Position numbers and translations under genes: made by a program. This document shows positions 528 through 9,366 of a DNA stretch of 9,419 nt, piece by piece. Numbering within the stretch: the first letter of the stretch is position 1; every line of letters starts with the position of its first letter. The stretch is from Halalkalibacterium halodurans (GTDB lineage: Bacteria > Bacillota > Bacilli > Bacillales > Bacillaceae_D). Below the pieces are notes generated by a model. It was given only the letters and a program-made list of their open reading frames with translations. It made no database searches and had not been told where the DNA came from. The DNA lies in contig NZ_SNUY01000010.1 in NCBI RefSeq assembly GCF_004376175.1, positions 77,495 through 86,913 on the forward strand. The letters are read 5' to 3'.

Positions 528-674
528 ATGGAAAAGGGAATTAGTATACAAAATCTTATGTTATATGTAGCCTGGCTGGTTGCAGTGGTGGCAACGTTAG
601 GTAGTTTGTATTTTAGTGAAATTCGCTTATTTGTTCCCTGTGAGCTTTGCTGGTATCAGAGGATTGTAATGTAC
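528..674 (+). pseudogene. bdbC: Disulfide bond formation protein BdbC/DsbB family, N-terminal fragment (codons 1-49), truncated by IS3-family insertion
   Basis: GGAG at 516-519 lies 8 nt before ATG 528. The translation [49 protein letters not shown] matches my recollection of the B. subtilis BdbC N-terminus (..[27 protein letters not shown]..), including the CxxC active site. After codon 49 the reading frame runs into the IS terminal repeat, so the 62-aa track ORF 528-716 is a chimera. Confidence 0.85.
671..674. repeat. Target-site duplication GTAC (left copy) of the IS3-family element
   Basis: GTAC lies immediately outside the TGG terminus at 675. An identical GTAC lies at 1913-1916, immediately outside the CCA terminus at 1912. 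The true duplication could be 3 bp (TAC) with a fortuitous G. Confidence 0.7.
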
Positions 675-692
675 TGGTATGTCAACACTAAA

Positions 693-1511
693 TCAAACAA
701 TTTTTTTAAGGGCTAAGTTTCGATAACTTACCGGACTTTGATACCCAAGGGCACTGTGCGAACGAATGTTATTGTACCAATTGATATAATCAAAAAGTTC
801 AAGTTCCAGGTGGTAAAAGGAATGGAAATGCTCTCCATTGATTAGTTCCGTTTTCAAAATCTTAAATGTCGCTTCTGCCACCGCATTATCATAAGGGTTT
901 CCTTTATGGCTCAATGAGCGTCCAATCTCATATTCACTTAATCATTCATCAATGGCCACGTTTTTAAACTCAGATCCGCGGTCTGTATGAAAGAGTTTCA
1001 CATTCTCTAGTGGCCGATTAACCGATGCGAAAGCACGCTGAACTAAAGCTGCGTCTTTGCGTTGTCCAACGCTGTAACCAACTATTTCTCTATTGTATAA
1101 ATCGATTAAAAAACAGACGTAGTTCCAATGTTGTCCTACTTTGACATACGTTAGATCACTAACCAATACAGACATCTCTTCATCTACTTGAAATTCCCGA
1201 TCTAACACATTTGGAACGGATTCTTCATTTGGACGAGAGCTCACTGGTTTGTAGGACGGTTGTGCATACTTTGATTGAATTCCAAGCTCCTCCATTAATC
1301 TACCTATGCGACGTCTGGAAACCTTGTGACCCGCTTTTAAAAGGTCTCCTTTTATTTTGCGAGTTCCATATACTTTACGGTTTTCGTTAAAGATCTTTCG
1401 TATTTTCTCTTTTAATTCTTGTTCTTCTTTAGCCTTTTCTTTTTCTTTTTGAGCAGCTATTTCTGTTTCATAATAAAAGGTACTTCGAGCTATTTGTAGG
1501 ACTTCGCACAT
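693..1511 (-). pseudogene. IS3-family transposase OrfB (DDE/rve catalytic domain) interrupted by an in-frame TGA at 942-944
   Basis: Track ORFs 942-1511 and 693-914 are in the same frame, separated only by a TGA (reverse complement of 942-944): ...FHTDRGSEFKNVAIDE*LSEYEIGRSLSHKGNPYDNAVAEATF.... The first D (SDLTYV) and second D (HTDRGSEF) lie upstream of the stop. The catalytic E (YDNAVAE) lies downstream. The frame is also open upstream of the listed Met (..YFKASCADHGTKIEVIEKNLHLYSVSA-MCEV..), back into the orfA overlap, as expected for an OrfAB fusion. Confidence 0.85.
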
Positions 1512-1552
1512 TGCTGATACCGAATAAAGGTGCAGATTTTTTTCAATTACCT

Positions 1553-1834
1553 CTATTTTCGTCCCATGATCAGCGCAGCTTGCTTTAAAATATCGACCTC
1601 CATTTCTAGCTGTTTATTTCTTTTTCTTAATTCAATCAATTCTTGTTCTTCTGGGCTTCGATTGTCTTTTTCTTTAAACGAACCATACTGTTGAAACTGA
1701 GTAATCCATCTGTCTAATGCAGAAGCAGTTAATTCATATTCACGGACAATATCTTGACGGCTTTTTCCACCTTCATATAAAGCAACCACTTGCTTCTTAA
1801 ATTCTGTGGAAAACGTTCTTCTTTTTTTGGACAT
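1553..1834 (-). CDS. IS3-family transposase OrfA (HTH DNA-binding plus leucine-zipper-like C-terminus)
   Basis: The 93-aa product MSKKRRTFSTEFKKQVVALYEGGKSRQDIVREYELTASALDRWI... is a typical IS3 OrfA HTH, followed by a heptad-like ELIELRKRNKQLEMEVDILKQA. AAGGAG sits 10 nt upstream of the ATG (reverse complement of about 1845-1850). Confidence 0.9.
   Translation of the reverse strand: MSKKRRTFSTEFKKQVVALYEGGKSRQDIVREYELTASALDRWITQFQQYGSFKEKDNRSPEEQELIELRKRNKQLEMEVDILKQAALIMGRK
1583..1589 (-). promoter_or_regulatory. Candidate programmed -1 ribosomal frameshift heptamer U UUA AAG joining orfA to orfB
   Basis: The - strand reads GAT ATT TTA AAG CAA in the orfA frame, so T TTA AAG fits the X XXY YYZ pattern. 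The -1 frame (TTT AAA GCA AGC...) is the open orfB frame. The site lies 10 codons before the orfA stop, the usual IS3 arrangement. Confidence 0.55.
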
Positions 1835-1864
1835 AGTAGATTCGCTCCTTACTCGTTGTGTATT

Positions 1865-1894
1865 ATTCTACTAGCCCTTATTTTTATTGTCCAA
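1865..1894 (-). promoter_or_regulatory. Candidate sigma-A-type promoter inside the orfA-proximal terminal repeat of the IS3 element
   Basis: On the - strand: TTGGAC (1894-1889), an 18-nt spacer, then TAGAAT (1870-1865), located upstream of the orfA ribosome binding site and ATG. This is a hexamer match only. Confidence 0.3.
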
Positions 1895-1912
1895 CTAAGT
1901 GTAGCCTATCCA

Positions 1913-1916
1913 GTAC
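1913..1916. repeat. Target-site duplication GTAC (right copy) of the IS3-family element
   Basis: See 671-674. TAC (1914-1916) re-creates the Tyr49 codon of bdbC. Confidence 0.7.
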
Positions 1917-2084
1917 CCGTTGAGTGTATTACTGGGAATAGCGGCTTACTATAATGATTTAAAAATAAAACGATATGTGCTCCCACTCTCTATTATAGGT
2001 GGAGTCATTTCACTCTATCATTATCTTATTCAAAGGATACCATCATTTGGGCAAATAAAACCATGCGTTGAGGGAGTTCCTTGT
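1917..2084 (+). pseudogene. bdbC: BdbC/DsbB family protein, middle fragment (codons 50-105)
   Basis: In frame after the duplicated TAC: PLSVLLGIAAYYNDLKIKRYVLPLSIIGGVISLYHYLIQRIPSFGQIKPCVEGVPC. I recall B. subtilis BdbC as PLVLILGIATFQGDTRVKKYVLPMAIIGAFISIMHYLEQKVPGFSGIKPCVSGVPC. The fragment is exactly 56 codons with no stops and ends at the transposon junction. Confidence 0.85.
2079..2084. repeat. Target-site duplication (C)CTTGT, left copy, of the Mu/Tn7-like transposon
   Basis: CCTTGT lies immediately left of the TGTT terminus at 2085, and the same hexamer lies at 5333-5338 immediately right of the ...AACA terminus. The real duplication may be 5 bp (CTTGT), as in Mu/Tn7/Tn5053-type elements. 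Confidence 0.75.
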
Positions 2085-2137
2085 TGTTTAAGCTGATCTA
2101 AATATTCCGAAAGTTGATGCTAATGCCTGGCCGAAGG

Positions 2138-2166
2138 TTGACCGATATAATGACCAGAAGTATAAA
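2138..2166 (+). promoter_or_regulatory. Candidate sigma-A promoter in the transposon left end, driving the four-gene operon
   Basis: TTGACC (2138-2143), an exact 17-nt spacer, then TATAAA (2161-2166), about 35 nt upstream of the first ORF. The -35 hexamer overlaps one of the subterminal repeat copies (GGTTGACCGATATAA). Confidence 0.5.
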
Positions 2167-2199
2167 ATCTGGAGAAAGGAAAAGACGTCCCCCATAAAT

Positions 2200-2808
2200 G
2201 TGAAACTACGCCAACAGTTTCACAGGAGACGTCCACCCCAAAAAAGATTATGGTCATTATATCAAATTATTCCTTGGTTGAGAAGCAATCTGGCGTTTTT
2301 TGTTAGAAGTACGGAACGAATCCCCTGCCCTTGTTGTGGAGGAACACTTTCAGTGGCAGGAAGCCGGAAACGTGCATGGTATAAAAGCAGTGGCGAGCGC
2401 TCCAGGCTTGTGATTCGAAGGCTATATTGTGAGGCATGCGATAAGATTCATCATGAACTCCCTGATATTCTTGTGCCTTATAAAAGGTATGATGCGGAGA
2501 GTATAGAAGGTACCGTTTCTACACCACCACGTACAGAGGCAGCGGTGGATGAAGCAACCATCTTTCGATGGAAGAACTGGTTTCAGGTGTGGGTGGCGTA
2601 TGCCATCGGCTGCCTCCGGTCTATCGCGATACGTTTTGATCTGCCTGTGGAGGAATTGTCCGAATCTCCACAAACCGTACTTCACTCCCTGGGACAATAT
2701 GTAGGTATGGAGGAGGGATGGCTGAAGAGAGCTGTCCGTTCCATGACAAATTTAAATCTTTGGGTCACAGACCCGTTCCGCATTTCTGGCCGGACTGCTC
2801 TGGAGTAA
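2200..2808 (+). CDS. Cys4 zinc-ribbon protein of unknown function (DUF6431-like), first gene of the transposon
   Basis: The ORF is 202 aa and has the same elevated G+C as the following genes. It carries CPCCGG...(32 aa)...CEACDKIHHELPDILVPYKRY. From memory, the paired CxxC motifs followed by an LPD(F/I)LxPYKRY motif fit DUF6431 proteins that accompany transposases in Firmicutes. The start is uncertain: GTG at 2200 has only a distant GGAG, and there is no in-frame ATG before the zinc ribbon. Confidence 0.65.
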   Translation: MKLRQQFHRRRPPQKRLWSLYQIIPWLRSNLAFFVRSTERIPCPCCGGTLSVAGSRKRAWYKSSGERSRLVIRRLYCEACDKIHHELPDILVPYKRYDAESIEGTVSTPPRTEAAVDEATIFRWKNWFQVWVAYAIGCLRSIAIRFDLPVEELSESPQTVLHSLGQYVGMEEGWLKRAVRSMTNLNLWVTDPFRISGRTALE

Positions 2809-2823
2809 ACTCATGCTATACCA

Positions 2824-4197
2824 ATGAATGGGAGGCATGAGAAGATGAAAAGTCAACGGAAAGCGGAAGAAACAGCCGCGGAACGTATGCAGTTAATCTC
2901 CCCTCTTTTGGCGGAGGGGTTGGATGCTGGCAAAGCAAGGAAAATCAAGGCTGATATCTGTGAAAGAGCAGGTGTTTCGGAAAGGACCATCCGCCGGTAT
3001 CTTTCCCAGTACCGTAACGAAGGGTTCGAAGGCTTAAAGCCGAAGGAAAAAGGAAGAAAACCTGCCAGGACAGGGATCCCTCCTGCTTTACTGGAGGAGG
3101 CTATCCTTTTGAGGAGGGAGGTTCCGGGGCGGAGTGTCAGCCAGATCATTCAGATTCTTGAGTGGGAAGGAAAGGCAGAGCCGGGAGAATTAAAAAGGAG
3201 TACGCTCCAGGAAAAACTGGCTGAACGGGGCTACAGTTCCCGGCAAATGCGGATGTATACAAGCAGTGGAGTTGCCGCAAGAAGATTTCAAAGAAGGTAC
3301 CGGAACAGCCTTTGGCAGTCTGATATCAAGTATGGCCCCTTTCTACCGATTGGTCCCAACGGGACCAATAAGCAGGTATACCTAGTCTTGTTTATTGATG
3401 ACGCCACAAGATATGTTCTTCATGGTGAGTGGTATCCCACACTGGATCAGTCCATTGTCGAAGACTGCTTCCGTAAAGCGATACAAAAGGCGGGACTGCC
3501 TGAGGCCGTCTACTTTGATAACGGAAAACAGTACCGGACGAAGTGGATGGGGCGAACCTGTTCTAAACTGGGTATCCGTTTATTATACGCAAAGCCGTAC
3601 TCACCTGATTCGAAAGGGAAGGTGGAAAAGTTTAATAGGAACGTTCAGGCCTTTATGGATGAAGCAATGTTGGAAAAACCGAAAACATTGGATCAGTTTA
3701 ACCATCTCTTCCAGGCCTGGCTGAGTGAATGTTATCAGAATAAACCCCACTCTGCTTTGGACGCAGCCAGTCCTGAAGCTGCGTTCCGGTCCGATTCCAA
3801 AACGCTTCGTTTCCCTGAGGTGGATGTACTGGCCAATGCCTTTTTGCATTGCGAAGAAAGAAAAGTAGATAAAGCAGGCTGTATCAGCTTTATGGGCAAG
3901 AAATACGAAGTGGGTCTCTTGTTTATTGGCAGGAAGGTACAAGTGGTTTATGACCTGGCGGACATTTCAGAAGTAACCATTGAATATGAAGGGCATTCTC
4001 CGTGGAAAGCAAGAGAACTGGAGATCGGAGAGCGCGCAGGCAAAAGACCAGTTCTGCCGGATCACCTTCTGATCCAGGAAACAGACCACTCCCGATTACT
4101 ACAGGGAGCTGAACAAAAACTGGAAGAACGGAAACAGATTCAAGCCCCTGCCGTCTCCTACCGGAGAGTAAGGAAGGAGGAAAACGGCTATGTTTGA
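2824..4197 (+). CDS. DDE transposase, rve integrase core with Mu-transposase-type C-terminal domain (TniA/TnsB/MuA-like)
   Basis: N-terminal HTH: AGVSERTIRRYLSQYRNEGFEGLKPKEKGRKP. DDE triad candidates are WQSD, YFDNGKQY and SKGKVEKFNR. The C-terminus VDKAGCISFMGKKYEV..GRKVQVVYDLADISEV resembles the Mu transposase C-terminal beta-barrel. The likely true start is ATG 2845, which has GGGAGG at 2830-2835 and a 9-nt spacer, rather than 2824. Confidence 0.9.
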   Translation: MNGRHEKMKSQRKAEETAAERMQLISPLLAEGLDAGKARKIKADICERAGVSERTIRRYLSQYRNEGFEGLKPKEKGRKPARTGIPPALLEEAILLRREVPGRSVSQIIQILEWEGKAEPGELKRSTLQEKLAERGYSSRQMRMYTSSGVAARRFQRRYRNSLWQSDIKYGPFLPIGPNGTNKQVYLVLFIDDATRYVLHGEWYPTLDQSIVEDCFRKAIQKAGLPEAVYFDNGKQYRTKWMGRTCSKLGIRLLYAKPYSPDSKGKVEKFNRNVQAFMDEAMLEKPKTLDQFNHLFQAWLSECYQNKPHSALDAASPEAAFRSDSKTLRFPEVDVLANAFLHCEERKVDKAGCISFMGKKYEVGLLFIGRKVQVVYDLADISEVTIEYEGHSPWKARELEIGERAGKRPVLPDHLLIQETDHSRLLQGAEQKLEERKQIQAPAVSYRRVRKEENGYV

Positions 4198-4990
4198 AGC
4201 TTTTTATGAATTAACTCATACACCCTTTTCCCGGGCTATTCCAACGGAAGAGCTATATAATTCCTACCTGCTGGAAGAGACACTGGGCAGATTGGAATAC
4301 GCTGCGGAACGCCAGCTATTTGGAGTCGTTACAGGGGATTGCGGCACAGGAAAAACAACCACGATTCGTCGGTTTATGGATGGGCTGGATCCTTCCAAGT
4401 TCTCGCTTTTATATATTTCCGATTCGAAGCTGACGCCCAGGAACTTTTACAGAGGCGTTCTTGAACAGCTCGGCTGCGAATCTAAGTTTTATCGAGGAGA
4501 TGCGAAGAGGCAGCTCCACAAAGAGATTGAACTGATGCGTGGAATCCATGGTATTCAGCCGATTGTAGTAGTGGATGAAGCCCATTTACTGGACCGTGAA
4601 ATGCTTGAAGAGGTTCGGTTCTTATTGAATTTTAAAATGGATGCTCAAAGCCCGATGGCCCTTATACTGGTCGGCCAAAACGAACTTTGGGACCGCCTGA
4701 AGCTCCAGTCTTATTCGGCGATCCGCCAGCGAATTGACTTACAGTGCAAGCTGGTTCATTACGACCGTTCAGAGACAAAGGAATACATGAAGCGCCATCT
4801 GTCCTATTCCGGTGCGAAGCAGGAGATTTTTTCGGATGGGGCAGTAGATTGTATTTATAATTTTTCTAGTGGTTCCGCCCGGCTGATTAACAAAGTGTGT
4901 ACCCATAGTCTTTTATACGGGGCACAGAATAAGCGCAGGATTATCGATGATCATATGGTGAAACAGGTGATAGAAGGAGAACTATCTTGA
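4190..4990 (+). CDS. AAA+ ATPase, TniB/ExeA/MuB-like transposition helper
   Basis: Walker A is GDCGTGKTT and Walker B is IVVVDEAHLL. GGAGG at 4176-4180 lies 9 nt before the ATG. The ATG overlaps the transposase stop by 8 nt (ATGTTTGA), which suggests translational coupling. A position immediately downstream of the DDE transposase is typical of TniA-TniB and IstA-IstB pairs. Confidence 0.9.
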   Translation: MFEAFYELTHTPFSRAIPTEELYNSYLLEETLGRLEYAAERQLFGVVTGDCGTGKTTTIRRFMDGLDPSKFSLLYISDSKLTPRNFYRGVLEQLGCESKFYRGDAKRQLHKEIELMRGIHGIQPIVVVDEAHLLDREMLEEVRFLLNFKMDAQSPMALILVGQNELWDRLKLQSYSAIRQRIDLQCKLVHYDRSETKEYMKRHLSYSGAKQEIFSDGAVDCIYNFSSGSARLINKVCTHSLLYGAQNKRRIIDDHMVKQVIEGELS

Positions 4991-5220
4991 TGTGGGAATG
5001 TCGGTTTATCGCCTATTCTAAGCTTATGAAGTGTTGGCTTTTGGTAAAAGGGGAATATGGCCGCTTCCTGTATGAGGGAACCCGATTTTATATGCGTTTT
5101 GATGAAGGAGTCTTCCTTCCTTGTCAGCTCGAATTCGATAGACAGTGGTATGTGACCATCGGTGATGAGGGCATACGACTTAATTTGAGAAAGAACGAAG
5201 AATACCAAGTTTATATGTAA
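4987..5220 (+). CDS. Small (about 76 aa) protein of unknown function, DUF5348-like, last gene of the transposon
   Basis: The probable start, ATG 4990, overlaps the ATPase TGA stop (TGATG), with GAAGGAGA upstream (4973-4980). There is no TM segment or signal peptide. The beta-rich sequence GRFLYEGTRFYMRFDEGVFLPCQLEFDRQWYVTIGDEGIRLNL fits my recollection of DUF5348 proteins. The family name needs an HMM check. Confidence 0.6.
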   Translation: MMWECRFIAYSKLMKCWLLVKGEYGRFLYEGTRFYMRFDEGVFLPCQLEFDRQWYVTIGDEGIRLNLRKNEEYQVYM

Positions 5221-5225
5221 TTAAT

Positions 5226-5260
5226 AGGGAAGCGATGCACAACCAAGCTTCCCTTTCATT
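5226..5260 (+). terminator. Candidate intrinsic terminator after the transposon operon
   Basis: The stem AGGGAAGC (5226-5233) pairs with GCTTCCCT (5247-5254) around a 13-nt loop, followed by TTCATTT. It starts 6 nt after the stop at 5220. The U-tract is short and interrupted. Confidence 0.45.
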
Positions 5261-5332
5261 TGGACAAAATAGGGAGCAATATCGGGACAAAGTTTCCCGT
5301 CTTCCGCATGACTTTATATGGCGTCAGTAACA

Positions 5333-5338
5333 CCTTGT
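5333..5338. repeat. Target-site duplication (C)CTTGT, right copy
   Basis: See 2079-2084. Confidence 0.75.
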
Positions 5339-5449
5339 AATGTTCAGTATATAAATTGGCTAGGATTTATAACCATTCCTTTTTTATCTCTTACTGCATT
5401 TACCATTATTTCAGTTCTTTTGTTATTGATAAAAACGAATAAGAAGTAG
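5339..5449 (+). pseudogene. bdbC: BdbC/DsbB family protein, C-terminal fragment (codons 106-141 plus stop)
   Basis: NVQYINWLGFITIPFLSLTAFTIISVLLLLIKTNKK* follows the duplicated CCT TGT in frame. I recall B. subtilis BdbC as ..SGQYINWFGFITIPFLALIAFILIIILMCML... Confidence 0.85.
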
Positions 5450-5523: not shown

Positions 5524-5570
5524 AAACTAAAGAAACACACCCATAAGTTCAGGGTGTGTTCCTTTAGTTT
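5524..5570. terminator. Candidate bidirectional intrinsic terminator between convergent bdbC and ccdA
   Basis: A 19-bp stem pairs 5524-5542 with 5552-5570, with one mismatch (5533/5561) and a 9-nt loop. Both arms end in TTTAGTTT-type T-rich sequence. It lies 75 nt after the bdbC stop and 34 nt after the ccdA stop. Confidence 0.6.
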
Positions 5571-5603: not shown

Positions 5604-6317
5604 TTAAAAATTAAACGGAACAAACCTTGCGAAATATGTAGCAAGAATACGGAATTGTCCAGTAAATAACAAAATGCCTAGTATAATCATAATTGCACCG
5701 CTAATTTTCTGTATAGTCGGTAGCAATCGGTTGAACTTTTTGAGCTTATGCAATGACTTTGACCATAACAATGCAACTGCAAAAAAGGGGAGGGCTAATC
5801 CCATTGAGTAAACAAACAACATAAGCATTCCTGTATATAGAGTTTCGGTTTGACTAGATAAGATAAGAATCGAAGAAAGGACAAGTCCAATACAAGGTGT
5901 CCAACCGGCTCCGAATACGATACCAAGAATGACGGAATTACCGAAACTAGCAGTCTTCCTTTTACCGATTGACAAACGTTTTTCTTTATAAAGCAAATTT
6001 AAAGAAATAACACCTATCATCTGTAACCCAAATACGAAAATAATAATACCGCCGATTTGCTCTATGAGAACTCGATTATTAGAAAATAATTGACCAATTA
6101 CAGTTGAAGAGGCTCCTAATATCATAAAGATAAGGGTGAACCCTGAGATAAAACCTATACTATTGTAAATGAGGAGCCGGCGATCAGCTTCAATTTGATT
6201 TTCCTTCACACTTGTTCCCGTTATTTGTGCTAAATAAGCCGGAACAAGGGGAAGCACACAGGGAGATAAAAAAGAAACTAAGCCCGCTGCAAATGCTAAC
6301 CAAATCGTTACCTCCAT
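5604..6317 (-). CDS. ccdA: Cytochrome c biogenesis thiol-disulfide transporter CcdA (DsbD-family membrane protein)
   Basis: The product is a 237-aa polytopic membrane protein. Both hallmark motifs are present: FLSPCVLPLVPAYL near the N-terminus and GWTPCIGLVL mid-protein. A strong ribosome binding site, GGAGGTG, lies 7 nt upstream of the ATG. Confidence 0.9.
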   Translation of the reverse strand: MEVTIWLAFAAGLVSFLSPCVLPLVPAYLAQITGTSVKENQIEADRRLLIYNSIGFISGFTLIFMILGASSTVIGQLFSNNRVLIEQIGGIIIFVFGLQMIGVISLNLLYKEKRLSIGKRKTASFGNSVILGIVFGAGWTPCIGLVLSSILILSSQTETLYTGMLMLFVYSMGLALPFFAVALLWSKSLHKLKKFNRLLPTIQKISGAIMIILGILLFTGQFRILATYFARFVPFNF

Positions 6318-6346
6318 TTTTAAACACCTCCAATGTTATGGAAAAA

Positions 6347-6862
6347 TTAATGGTTCGAATGATCACTTTCGTTATTGTTCTGATCAGTATTTCCCATTTC
6401 TAAATTAACTGTATCTGGTTTAGATGTGATTTCATCAACATCAACGTCTCCTACTACGACCATTTCTTTTTCCATACGATGCATATCACAAGCCGTTACA
6501 TGATAGTAAATGTAGTAAACACCTTCTTCTTCAAATGTCCAGTCAAGTTGGTAAACACCAGGTTCTACTTTCTCCGCTTTTAGTAGGTGATGATATTCCT
6601 GATTTCCATGTTCCCAAATTTCAAATTCAACTTGATTTGCGTTCTCAACAGGTAACCCTTCATGGGTGATAGTAGTACTAAAGGTCACTTTTTCGTTTGA
6701 TTCAGGTTCACTAAGATTGTAACCAGAATCTATTTCAATTGGCACAAGTGTATTAGAACAATCACTAGTTTTTTCTTCAGTCGAGCAGGCAGATAAAATC
6801 ATAAGTAATGCTAATGAAAGAAATATAAAGTATTTTTTCATTTTTATTTCAGCTTCTTTCAT
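6347..6862 (-). CDS. Lipoprotein, YtkA/FixH-like extracytoplasmic domain (possible metal or cytochrome-oxidase assembly factor), co-transcribed with ccdA
   Basis: The signal peptide has a lipobox (MKKYFIFLSLALLMILSAC|S). The more likely start is the internal ATG at 6841, not 6862. The His/Met-rich beta domain (VEFEIWEHGNQEYHHLL...YYHVTACDMHRMEKEM) resembles YtkA-like lipoproteins from memory. Only 29 nt separate it from ccdA. The C-terminal tail is acidic and Asn/His-rich. Confidence 0.7.
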   Translation of the reverse strand: MKEAEIKMKKYFIFLSLALLMILSACSTEEKTSDCSNTLVPIEIDSGYNLSEPESNEKVTFSTTITHEGLPVENANQVEFEIWEHGNQEYHHLLKAEKVEPGVYQLDWTFEEEGVYYIYYHVTACDMHRMEKEMVVVGDVDVDEITSKPDTVNLEMGNTDQNNNESDHSNH

Positions 6863-7021: not shown

Positions 7022-7067
7022 AATGTTCAGGGTGTGTTGCCCGGGAGGGCAACACACCCTGAACATT
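7022..7067. other. Perfect 21-bp-stem hairpin with a GGGA tetraloop between the istB stop and the IS21 end
   Basis: AATGTTCAGGGTGTGTTGCCC (7022-7042) pairs perfectly with GGGCAACACACCCTGAACATT (7047-7067). On the + strand it runs into TTTT (7066-7069). On the - strand, the sense strand for istB, no U-tract follows. Confidence 0.8.
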
Positions 7068-7079
7068 TTCGCGCCTCGA

Positions 7080-7841
7080 TTACCCTTCGGCGTTATTTTC
7101 TTTCCGTTTTATACTTTGCCTAAATCTATAAGACTCCCCGTTAAGTAAATGAATATGTGCTTTGTGGGTGAGACGATCTAAGAGGGCTGCTGTCATTTTT
7201 TCGTCTCCAAAAACGGAAGTCCATTCAGTAAAATCAAGATTGGTTGTGATAATAACGCTTGCGCGTTCATAGCGACTTGAGAAGAACTGAAACAATAGTT
7301 CTGATCCTATCTTTGAGAAGGGCACATATCCTAGCTCATCGATTATGATTACATCAAATTTGAGCCACTTTTTTTCAAATGAAAGCAGAGTATGCTCTTC
7401 TTTTGCCAATAATAATTCCTCTACTAATTGAGCAGCTGTTATAAACTTAACTTTAAGGCCGTTTTTGATTAGTTCAATCCCTAAACCTGTAGCTAGATGG
7501 GTTTTCCCGGTACCACTGTTTCCTAGAAATAATATGTTCTCTTTCTTTTGGACAAATTCTCCTTTAGCCAGGGTCAAAAATCGATTTTTGTTTAGGCTAG
7601 GCATTAAGCTAAAATCATACGAATCTAACGTTTTTTGTACGGTAAATGTAGCTTGCTTAAGTCGCCTTTGTTTTTGATTTTCTTCCCTTGTTTGGAGCTC
7701 AAGTTCTAATAGAGCCATCAGGTATTCTTCATAACGTAAGTTTCTTTCTTCAGCCTCTCTTGCGAGAGAACGATACTGTTTAGCGATCGTTGGCATCCTC
7801 AATTGTTTAGTTATGTGGTCTAATAATAATTCAGTGGTCAT
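7080..7841 (-). CDS. istB: IS21-family helper ATPase IstB
   Basis: Walker A is GNSGTGKTHLA and Walker B is VIIIDELGY. The typical IstB C-terminus is present (ITTNLDFTEWTSVFGDEKMTAALLDRLTHKAHI). The start lies 1 nt after the istA stop. Confidence 0.95.
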   Translation of the reverse strand: MTTELLLDHITKQLRMPTIAKQYRSLAREAEERNLRYEEYLMALLELELQTREENQKQRRLKQATFTVQKTLDSYDFSLMPSLNKNRFLTLAKGEFVQKKENILFLGNSGTGKTHLATGLGIELIKNGLKVKFITAAQLVEELLLAKEEHTLLSFEKKWLKFDVIIIDELGYVPFSKIGSELLFQFFSSRYERASVIITTNLDFTEWTSVFGDEKMTAALLDRLTHKAHIHLLNGESYRFRQSIKRKENNAEG

Positions 7842-7842
7842 T

Positions 7843-9366
7843 TTACTGTCCCCCTGTCAATTGCCCATACTGTGATATGCTAGACTTTTGAATTTTGTAA
7901 TCTAACAAACTCAAAGGGGTATTTTCAATAGGGAGTTTATCGATTGTCACGTCATTATTTGTCAATCGCTGAATTAGCTCATGAACGACTTCATAACGAT
8001 AAACCTGTGTTTTTTCTGCTTGTATTAGAGCTTTTGTTAAATTTTCCATTCCTATCTCGCGATGCAGGAGCAGGAGACGTATGAATTTTCGGTCACCATT
8101 CGCACCTTCTTCTTCACGCATTTTATGATGAAACCTCCTAAACACATCTGGGATGTCTGAAGATTGAAATGCATGAGCATCTCGGATCGCTCTTGGCTTT
8201 TTCAATAGGGCTTCTAAATAATGATCAAGAACTGTAATCATCTGATTCCGTTCGTAAGAGCGGGGATGTTGTGCGATTACCTGGTTTTGAGCCACTACGA
8301 TTACTTGATCCACAAAAATTTTTACCCAAACAGCTTGTCCAACATAACGACATGGAACCGAATATTGATTTGTTTCAACAGTGATTAATGAGGTTTTGTT
8401 CACTTGACACGAAACTAATTTACAAGCTTCGAATTTGTTGGCTGGAAGAGGGTGTAGATGTTCTTTTTCTTTATGCCACATTTGTAAGACTGTTTCTTTT
8501 CTATGTGGTACTTTTCTTCTTTCTGATTCTTCCATACACCAATTTAAAAGATAATTATTTAATTCTTCCATTGATTGTACTTCTGGCAATGGAACGAAGG
8601 CATTTCTTCGGACATAACCAACGGTTCCTTCCACTCTACCTTTTTCGTTCCCAGCTCTAACGTTACAAAATTCTGCTTTAAATAAATAGTGAGCTTGCAG
8701 GGCAAGAAAAGCCTCCTGTTCAAGTCGATCTCTTCCTTGTAAATTCTTTTGCACGGCTGTTTTTAAATTATCAAAAAGTCCTTCTGTCGGAACACCTCCA
8801 AAAAATTGAAAAGCATGCACAAATCCATCTAAGAAAGCCTCTTGTTTTTCATGAAGGTATGCTCTGACGAATCTCATTCGAGATGCCGAAAGTTGCATAC
8901 AGAAGAGGAAAATACGTTGTTTTCGACCCTGTAGTATAATATCCGCCTCTCCCCAGTCGAATTGGAATTGGTGGCCGAGTTGAAAGTCAAGAGGGATAAA
9001 GACTTCCTGTAGCTTCTTTTTGCGCTTTGCAACAATTTTTCTCAGATTAGATTCAGAACCTTTAAATTCATATTCAGCTACTAATCTCTCATACATCCGT
9101 GCAGCTGTATGGCGTTGTTTTCCCCAACGCTTTAAATCATCTTCTAACCATTTATCGATAATAGGTAATATTCTCTCGGTTTCTTCAGAATACTTTGCTT
9201 TACCATATACTTTTTTACGATGAATAGTTGTTGGGGGTTCACCTTGCTTTAAATATTTACTTACAGTATTTCTTGATATTCCTAACTTTTTAGCTATTTG
9301 CCTTTGCGACAGTCCTTCTACCTCTTTCATAAATTTGATATTATAAAATTGAGCCATGTTGATCAT
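7843..9366 (-). CDS. istA: IS21-family transposase IstA
   Basis: N-terminal HTH: GLSQRQIAKKLGISRNTVSKYL. DDE candidates are QFDWGEA, LFDNLKTAV and GNEKGRVEG. The probable true start is the second ATG at 9357 (MAQFYN...), because AAGGA directly abuts ATG 9366 but lies 8 nt before ATG 9357. Confidence 0.95.
   Translation of the reverse strand: MINMAQFYNIKFMKEVEGLSQRQIAKKLGISRNTVSKYLKQGEPPTTIHRKKVYGKAKYSEETERILPIIDKWLEDDLKRWGKQRHTAARMYERLVAEYEFKGSESNLRKIVAKRKKKLQEVFIPLDFQLGHQFQFDWGEADIILQGRKQRIFLFCMQLSASRMRFVRAYLHEKQEAFLDGFVHAFQFFGGVPTEGLFDNLKTAVQKNLQGRDRLEQEAFLALQAHYLFKAEFCNVRAGNEKGRVEGTVGYVRRNAFVPLPEVQSMEELNNYLLNWCMEESERRKVPHRKETVLQMWHKEKEHLHPLPANKFEACKLVSCQVNKTSLITVETNQYSVPCRYVGQAVWVKIFVDQVIVVAQNQVIAQHPRSYERNQMITVLDHYLEALLKKPRAIRDAHAFQSSDIPDVFRRFHHKMREEEGANGDRKFIRLLLLHREIGMENLTKALIQAEKTQVYRYEVVHELIQRLTNNDVTIDKLPIENTPLSLLDYKIQKSSISQYGQLTGGQ

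Follow-up and report, generated by a model that had tools for sequence, protein, structure and literature searches.

DUF6431, a zinc ribbon accessory protein of a Mu/IS481-type insertion sequence with predicted layered control

In a 9,419-nucleotide stretch of Halalkalibacterium halodurans DNA (contig NZ_SNUY01000010.1, positions 77,495 to 86,913; hereafter the window), we found a complete insertion sequence whose first gene encodes a DUF6431 protein. Judging by its conserved gene linkage, DUF6431 belongs to a three-gene Mu/IS481-type insertion sequence as a constant accessory protein. By profile comparison, it is a free-standing Cys4 zinc ribbon plus HTH whose homologues are the N-terminal modules of ISL3 and ISH6 transposases and, more weakly, of IS256. 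The sequence data describe a transposase-ATPase element in which a constant accessory gene is subject to several predicted layers of control. The first-pass annotation had proposed a TniQ/TnsD-like target selector or transposase regulator; the TniQ core and site targeting fell away, and the other half of that proposal, a DNA-binding regulator or accessory protein, is the reading favored here. The element family has neither a name nor a mechanistic account in the literature searched, where only two mentions, both in passing, were found.

Element boundaries and gene content

The element lies within the host gene bdbC, and the bdbC reading frame resumes on either side of it (Table 1). In a public sequencing run, one contig represents the empty site and joins position 2078 to 5333, and further contig junctions in the same run end at 2084/5332. 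The empty site and the extra junctions at the same ends indicate that the boundaries are correct and that the element has moved recently. The end repeats follow a family consensus of TTGAC-N9-TGWCC in the alignment of 56 left ends and are degenerate in the present copy. DUF6431 is the first gene, as was first annotated, and neither a TniQ gene nor a resolvase gene is present in the element. The transposase scores under the curated cut-offs of both IS481 (186/224 bits) and IS21 (60/160 bits), and its start is likelier at 2845 than at 2824. The DUF5348-like gene was detected in a minority of DUF6431 loci.

Table 1. Features of the DUF6431 element and its insertion site, in window coordinates.
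Feature	Coordinates	Strand	Basis or details
6-bp target duplication, left copy, within host bdbC/dsbB	2079..2084	.	
Complete insertion sequence, 3,248 bp, TGT...ACA ends	2085..5332	+	Empty-site contig and further junctions
Left end, three ~23-bp repeats, putative transposase sites	2085..2157	+	56 left ends aligned
Putative conserved inward promoter, family -35 TTGCCT, 17 nt, -10 TATAAT	2123..2151	+	Conservation
Predicted ~75-nt antisense RNA against the 5' leader	2174..2249	-	Stem-loop 2184-2233, then U-rich tail
Actual 5' part of the gene, 18 codons from an ATG, encoding the first beta-strands	2250..2306	+	
Conserved outward promoter, TTYTCA, 17 nt, extended -10 TGnTAYAAT, in codons 3-12	2256..2284	-	Consensus, 76 loci
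T6 run, conserved site of +1 (or -2) recoding between the two frames	2296..2301	+	
DUF6431 main frame	2302..2808	+	Cys4 zinc ribbon 2326-2439, HELPD block 2452-2490, shortened HTH, helical tail
Near-invariant DNA motif at the gene 3' end	2768..2784	+	Kept in two reading frames across clades
Hairpin hiding the transposase Shine-Dalgarno, from 1 nt past the DUF6431 stop	2810..2841	+	z -3.4
Mu/IS481-like DDE transposase	2845..4197	+	HTH, rve, Mu-transpos_C
ExeA-like AAA+ ATPase	4190..4990	+	AAA_22, weak TniB match
Optional DUF5348-like small gene	4987..5220	+	E 0.002, below cut-off
Right end, same three ~23-bp repeats as the left end	5262..5332	-	
6-bp target duplication, right copy	5333..5338	.	

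The host bdbC/dsbB gene is interrupted twice (528-5449), by the DUF6431 element and by an IS3-family element at ~677-1915 with two minus-strand ORFs. Genes for a CcdA/DsbD-like membrane protein and a lipoprotein, identified by eye, adjoin bdbC at 5604-6862, a neighborhood that suggests disulfide/cytochrome c maturation. The same window also holds a separate IS21-like IstA/IstB-type pair (7080-9366, minus strand), an element with an AAA+ helper and no third gene. Two long near-perfect inverted repeats with a 14-nt core in common (5524-5570 and 7022-7067) are possibly terminators or members of a small repeat family.

Distribution and linkage of the DUF6431 gene

The 202-codon frame at 2200-2808, read from a GTG, is open and contains the features first ascribed to it, namely, the C43/C46 and C77/C80 pairs, the HELPD...PYKRY block, and a C-terminal half made up of helices. 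Residues 43-124 of this 202-aa reading match Pfam DUF6431 (E 7.8e-29), and the frame is under purifying selection (dN/dS 0.22; 26 close pairs). Relatives are numerous, with 339 close homologues and 1,649 cluster representatives.

Co-occurrence with the transposase/ATPase pair, which was expected of a functional partner, was found in both directions. A transposase lies downstream in 73 of 80 DUF6431 loci. Among 401 sampled Bacillota genomes, DUF6431 matches occur in about a quarter (101/401) and in 54 of the 57 that are transposase-positive; in the other three, the loci are at contig edges or truncated. Gene order, ends, and the 6-bp duplication are retained down to ~30% transposase identity. 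The DUF6431-transposase pair is also found in Actinomycetota and Pseudomonadota (three phyla in all), usually with an ATPase annotated alongside. The element reaches 11-15 copies per chromosome. A complex prediction for the window's ATPase with the DUF6431 core scored 0.00 with the fold of the partner uncertain, and speaks neither for nor against an interaction.

Some loci depart from this arrangement. The DUF6431 match is limited to the N-terminal 110 positions in L221, L248, L122, L127, and similar loci, and no transposase was found within 4.5 kb in two extended loci of this type; such matches are possibly decayed or domesticated copies. In L108 (G012:C3:979), the match lies within a 1,335-codon open frame, a possible fusion.

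Relationship of the zinc ribbon and HTH to transposases and TnsD

TniQ/TnsD proteins have a core consisting of a helical domain, a zinc finger, and a second helical domain (PMC10293859). The kinship to this core that was first proposed was not supported, with HHalign probabilities of 1% or less (1.0% and 0.7%). The core profile PF06527 is absent among the matches listed for 117 and 31 DUF6431 members, and no TniQ match was found in a genome with 11 DUF6431 copies. For the suggested structural comparison with TniQ/TnsD, fold searches on a confident model gave no clear match to any family.

The N-terminus of ISL3 transposases is a much closer relative. It aligns with DUF6431 over ~95-100 columns at HHalign values of 85% for the near clade and 95% for the distant members. 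At E 0.01 or better, 35 of 117 members match the ISL3 profile and 17 of 117 match ISH6, and the ISL3 model aligns onto DUF6431 loci over profile positions 9-115. A weak IS256 match (E 0.07 to 3e-4) falls in the same register. In the structure of ISCth4, an IS256-family transposase, the corresponding NDB and HTH domains contact subterminal element DNA (PMC7780238). The distant DUF6431 members have clear HTHs, and in the window's clade the HTH is shortened. One member has a weak IS1/IS1595 zinc match.

There is also a likeness to TnsD outside its core, in the C-terminal extension, the proposed target-recognition part (PMC10293859). Distant DUF6431 members match residues ~295-425 of Bacillota TnsD at 43-85% over ~115 columns depending on the alignment, in single pairwise comparisons with shallow templates (5-15 sequences). 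Both halves contribute to the match, and column shuffles gave 0.6% or less. The window's own clade matches this extension at under 1%. Because ISL3 matches the same TnsD region (L136, L285-L299) at 91-95%, DUF6431, ISL3, and the TnsD extension appear from these profiles to have one module in common, and an ISL3-type zinc ribbon plus HTH is a possible origin of the TnsD DNA-reading domain.

Start codon and frame break

The gene was first annotated from a GTG start, to which low expression was attributed. Low expression is probably right, with the frameshift and predicted antisense control described below as the cause in place of the GTG. Protein-level conservation is lacking over the first 32 codons of the 202-aa reading, and a stop falls there in 46 of 67 related loci. 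We therefore rejected the GTG start as an accident of the open frame; the conserved N-terminus uses a different frame, beginning at ATG 2250, and agrees with the N-termini of in-frame homologues.

Among 81 non-identical loci, the two frames are in a +1 (or -2) relation in 67, -1 in nine, and in frame in five. A more distant element with a transposase 47% identical keeps the same +1 break. The most distant DUF6431 subfamilies are in frame, as is the peptide in ~30 homologues from databases, most of them distant. When one T is skipped in the window, the product is a 185-aa protein with 62% identity end to end with an in-frame homologue. The model of the in-frame homologue reached pLDDT 93 and pTM 0.87, with pLDDT 98 for the first 20 residues; the window core without its first residues reached pLDDT 67, a contrast that is only suggestive, as alignments differ between the models. 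In +1 lineages, the frame 3' of the break has a dN/dS of 0.22. The mini-ORF has a pN/pS of 0.63 vs 0.50 in the other frame, a comparison made uninformative by constraint on the synonymous sites there. A sequencing error at the T-run was rejected, the covering contigs having no variant letters or indels.

These patterns indicate that the frame break is very probably real programmed recoding, with a slip at the T-run that may be ribosomal or transcriptional. The alternative, a mutational switch through changes of T-run length in the DNA or an internal start for the main frame, is unlikely. It would account for the recurrence of -1 and in-frame states on the tree (at least four and two changes forced, on a quick tree), and it fits runs that are short (mostly T4-T6; T4-T6 in the +1 class), the failure of both +1 and -2 tRNA-Phe re-pairing to account for all variants, and the GTG that lies directly 5' of the run in many loci. 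However, +1 is the resting state in 67/81 loci with the selection given above on the downstream frame, and every copy found in three closed multi-copy genomes (11, 4, and 6 copies) is out of frame, so that there is no sign of an in-frame helper. Also against this alternative, the in-frame copies L076, L111/L227, and L222 sit in elements with missing or truncated transposases, and about two in five loci, including that of the window, have no ATG, GTG, or TTG at the junction. Earlier mention of the programmed break was not found in the literature searched.

The same +1 break is present at the Alicyclobacillus dauci DUF6431 locus (L279:3291-3764), where the RefSeq start lies ~90 nt inside the matched region, past the first Cys pair. 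Near the 3' end of the gene (2760-2808), a one-base insertion, seen also in L002, L004, L006, L009, L011, and L021, alters the frame of the final codons, and in the window's clade it brings the DUF6431 stop beside the transposase hairpin.

Promoters, antisense RNA, and DNA motifs

The putative inward promoter overlaps the end repeats, with its -10 at 2146-2151 and a predicted transcription start near 2158. A candidate promoter TTGACC-17-TATAAA was rejected because of the conserved -10 at 2146. The outward promoter, with a predicted start near 2249 on the minus strand, was the only hit of a promoter search and is not significant alone. Third positions of codons 3-5 are near-invariant; read on the minus strand, they form its extended -10, and a conserved -35 lies at a spacing of 17 nt.

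Both sides of the leader hairpin change in 18 of 19 pairs, a count made on a hand-given structure that was derived from the same sequences and that the count thus favors; RNAalifold on the gappy leader alignment returned an empty structure. G-U pairs number 70 on the minus strand vs 19 on the plus strand, and the minus strand is the more stable in 37 of 42 cases; the hairpin has a z of -6.5. Together with the U-rich tail, this bias and stability assign the hairpin to the minus strand. An Rfam search gave no real match for the antisense RNA. The convergent promoter, the covarying minus-strand hairpin, and the U-tail suggest an RNA-OUT-like antisense RNA, as a prediction. An inverted repeat over the ATG can mask the start codon in read-through transcripts (unpaired 0.22 vs 0.50). 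This repeat is, however, invariant and not covarying, and two look-alike convergent promoters explain it better.

The hairpin over the transposase RBS is found in most relatives (mean z -2.9; 52 loci). In the window, the DUF6431 stop is 1 nt from the hairpin, a spacing well fitted to translational coupling. The stop precedes the hairpin by 9-19 nt in most relatives, so coupling is not general. A -10-like box at the 5' edge of the hairpin suggests an alternative, namely, an internal promoter, with a predicted plus-strand start at about 2815, giving a transcript without the blocking arm. The conserved motif at 2768-2784 is upstream of a TA(A/G/C)ACT -10-like box and is a candidate protein-binding site.

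Synonymous sites are strongly constrained in the last third of the gene (2646-2736). This segment may form a hairpin at 2646-2672, and it carries two TGTCC motifs resembling those of the end repeats.

Target sites

The target preference expected of a selector was not found, as 50 distinct insertion sites have no shared locus by blastn or tblastx. The duplications are 6 bp in 40 sites, 7 bp in seven, and 5 bp in three. Within 100 bp of the forty 6-bp sites, no position outside the duplication rises above shuffle level, and inside it there is a weak symmetric nYWWRn preference. One chromosome carries 11 copies scattered on both strands. A tRNA gene lies within 300 bp of 3/50 targets, at differing distances. 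Targeting is near-random, and a sequence-specific selector role is very unlikely.

Proposed role of the accessory protein

We propose, with about even odds, that DUF6431 is a DNA-binding accessory protein that is scarce, acts positively, and has its site within the element. The inward promoter, overlapped by the end repeats, would transcribe the gene, and the convergent promoter would give a short hairpin antisense RNA against the leader. Most ribosomes would terminate after 18 codons; the full protein would come from the minority that shift by +1 at the T-run. The scarce product would then bind the element and act positively, either by turning on transposase expression or by helping end assembly. 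Candidate sites are the end region and the invariant motif that precedes the putative transposase promoter. In the window's clade, ribosomes ending at the DUF6431 stop could also open the hairpin over the transposase RBS. DUF6431 would in this way be rate-limiting, a throttled license for transposition rather than a target finder.

Insertion sequences throttle positive transposition factors, and repressors such as InsA are the abundant product. A positive factor is favored by this throttling pattern, by a module that reads element DNA in the IS256 family, and by targets without a motif. The retention of the gene beside transposases of down to ~30% identity in three phyla and the throttling features are consistent with such a role. 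Points against it are the shortened HTH of the window's clade, the weak IS256 match, and a binding site that is a guess. A sequence-independent targeting role may also be compatible with the absence of a target motif.

One form of such a role, which we consider doubtful though worth stating, is a minimal adaptor of the TniQ/TnsE type that is not a TniQ homologue and that would bind target DNA with low specificity or recognize a DNA structure, and would load or cap the AAA+ ATPase. Constant co-occurrence with the ATPase, the zinc ribbon and HTH module that distant members have in common with the TnsD extension, and near-random insertion all accord with it. However, DUF6431 lacks the TniQ core, through which the adaptor connects with the transposase machinery; the MuB, IstB, and Tn552 p271 ATPases need no selector to capture targets; and the closest homologous module sits on transposases. 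The most far-reaching reading is likewise tentative: in a large unnamed family, DUF6431 could be a third core protein of transposition, built on the zinc ribbon and HTH of ISL3 and the TnsD extension as an independent, core-less counterpart of selectors or assembly factors, gated by a new +1 recoding on short T-runs and by antisense RNA, with its translation licensing the transposase.

We regard as improbable a repressor resembling InsA or OrfA that would attach to the ends or the promoter and reduce transposition. IS1 InsA has a zinc ribbon and HTH architecture like that found here, one DUF6431 member carries the weak IS1/IS1595 zinc match, and the promoters overlap candidate binding repeats. 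InsA and OrfA are abundant unshifted products, yet the unshifted product here is an 18-aa peptide and the full protein would be rare and further braked by the predicted antisense RNA. There is scarcely any room for a sequence-specific, TnsD-like selector homing the element to an attachment site, which has the module-level likeness of distant members to the TnsD extension in its favor but conflicts with 50 distinct sites lacking a shared locus and showing only weak nYWWRn within the duplication, with the eleven scattered copies in one chromosome, and with the present copy inside bdbC.

Gene callers in the window's clade give DUF6431 a wrong or truncated N-terminus, and clones or models based on such annotation miss part of the fold; the protein is corrected here, a function is put forward from homology, and three control elements open to test are described. 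If true, conserved +1 recoding on runs of T4-T6 would widen the known range of bacterial recoding signals. The module in common hints at the source of the DNA-reading part of TnsD. A compact Mu-like element of low specificity could also serve as a mutagenesis tool in Gram-positive bacteria.

Comparison with known systems

Like the ISL3 and ISH6 transposases, DUF6431 has a Cys4 ribbon whose beta-hairpin is long, followed by a conserved proline segment and then an HTH. Unlike in those transposases, the module is free-standing, lacks a catalytic domain, carries an extra helical tail, and serves an unrelated Mu/IS481-type transposase. It is not fused to a DDE domain in the loci examined, where it forms a separate short gene before a different transposase.

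Like the TniQ/TnsD proteins of Tn7, Tn5053, and CASTs, it is the product of a third gene that accompanies those for a TnsB-like transposase and a TnsC-like ATPase. It differs in lacking the Hel1-ZF-Hel2 core, in lying upstream of the transposase, in its size of ~185 aa, and in having no attachment site, and the element makes a duplication of mostly 6 bp rather than 5 bp. IS21, Tn552, and Mu resemble the element in the transposase-ATPase pair, the TG...CA ends, the repeated subterminal sites, and low target specificity. Tn552 also makes 6-bp duplications. The constant extra DUF6431 gene and the lack of a resolvase set the present element apart from these three.

Tn6049 of Cupriavidus metallidurans is 3.5 kb and encodes a GspA-like ATPase (PMC2864759); plasmids bearing it are absent among the 60 transposase matches listed. 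A DUF6431-DDE-AAA cassette with the identical three-gene order occurs at 15 copies per chromosome in Clostridium sp. JS66 (bioRxiv 10.64898/2026.08.16.744336). The section of that preprint on the cassette describes it as a repeat at a deletion boundary and does not report ends, mechanism, or recoding.

The control predicted here resembles the recoding and antisense control of other insertion sequences, in that a frame transition would limit a transposition protein and a convergent promoter would give a short hairpin antisense RNA over the leader. IS1 and IS3 use -1 frameshifts, and IS10 is under antisense control by RNA-OUT. In IS1447, +1 transcriptional slippage occurs on A9 and needs seven A's (PMC6211511); the T4-T6 runs of the +1 class are shorter than that. 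Unlike in IS1/IS3 and IS1447, the predicted shift in DUF6431 takes place in an accessory gene, after 17 codons and on a short T-run, and the unshifted product would be a tiny peptide and not a regulator.
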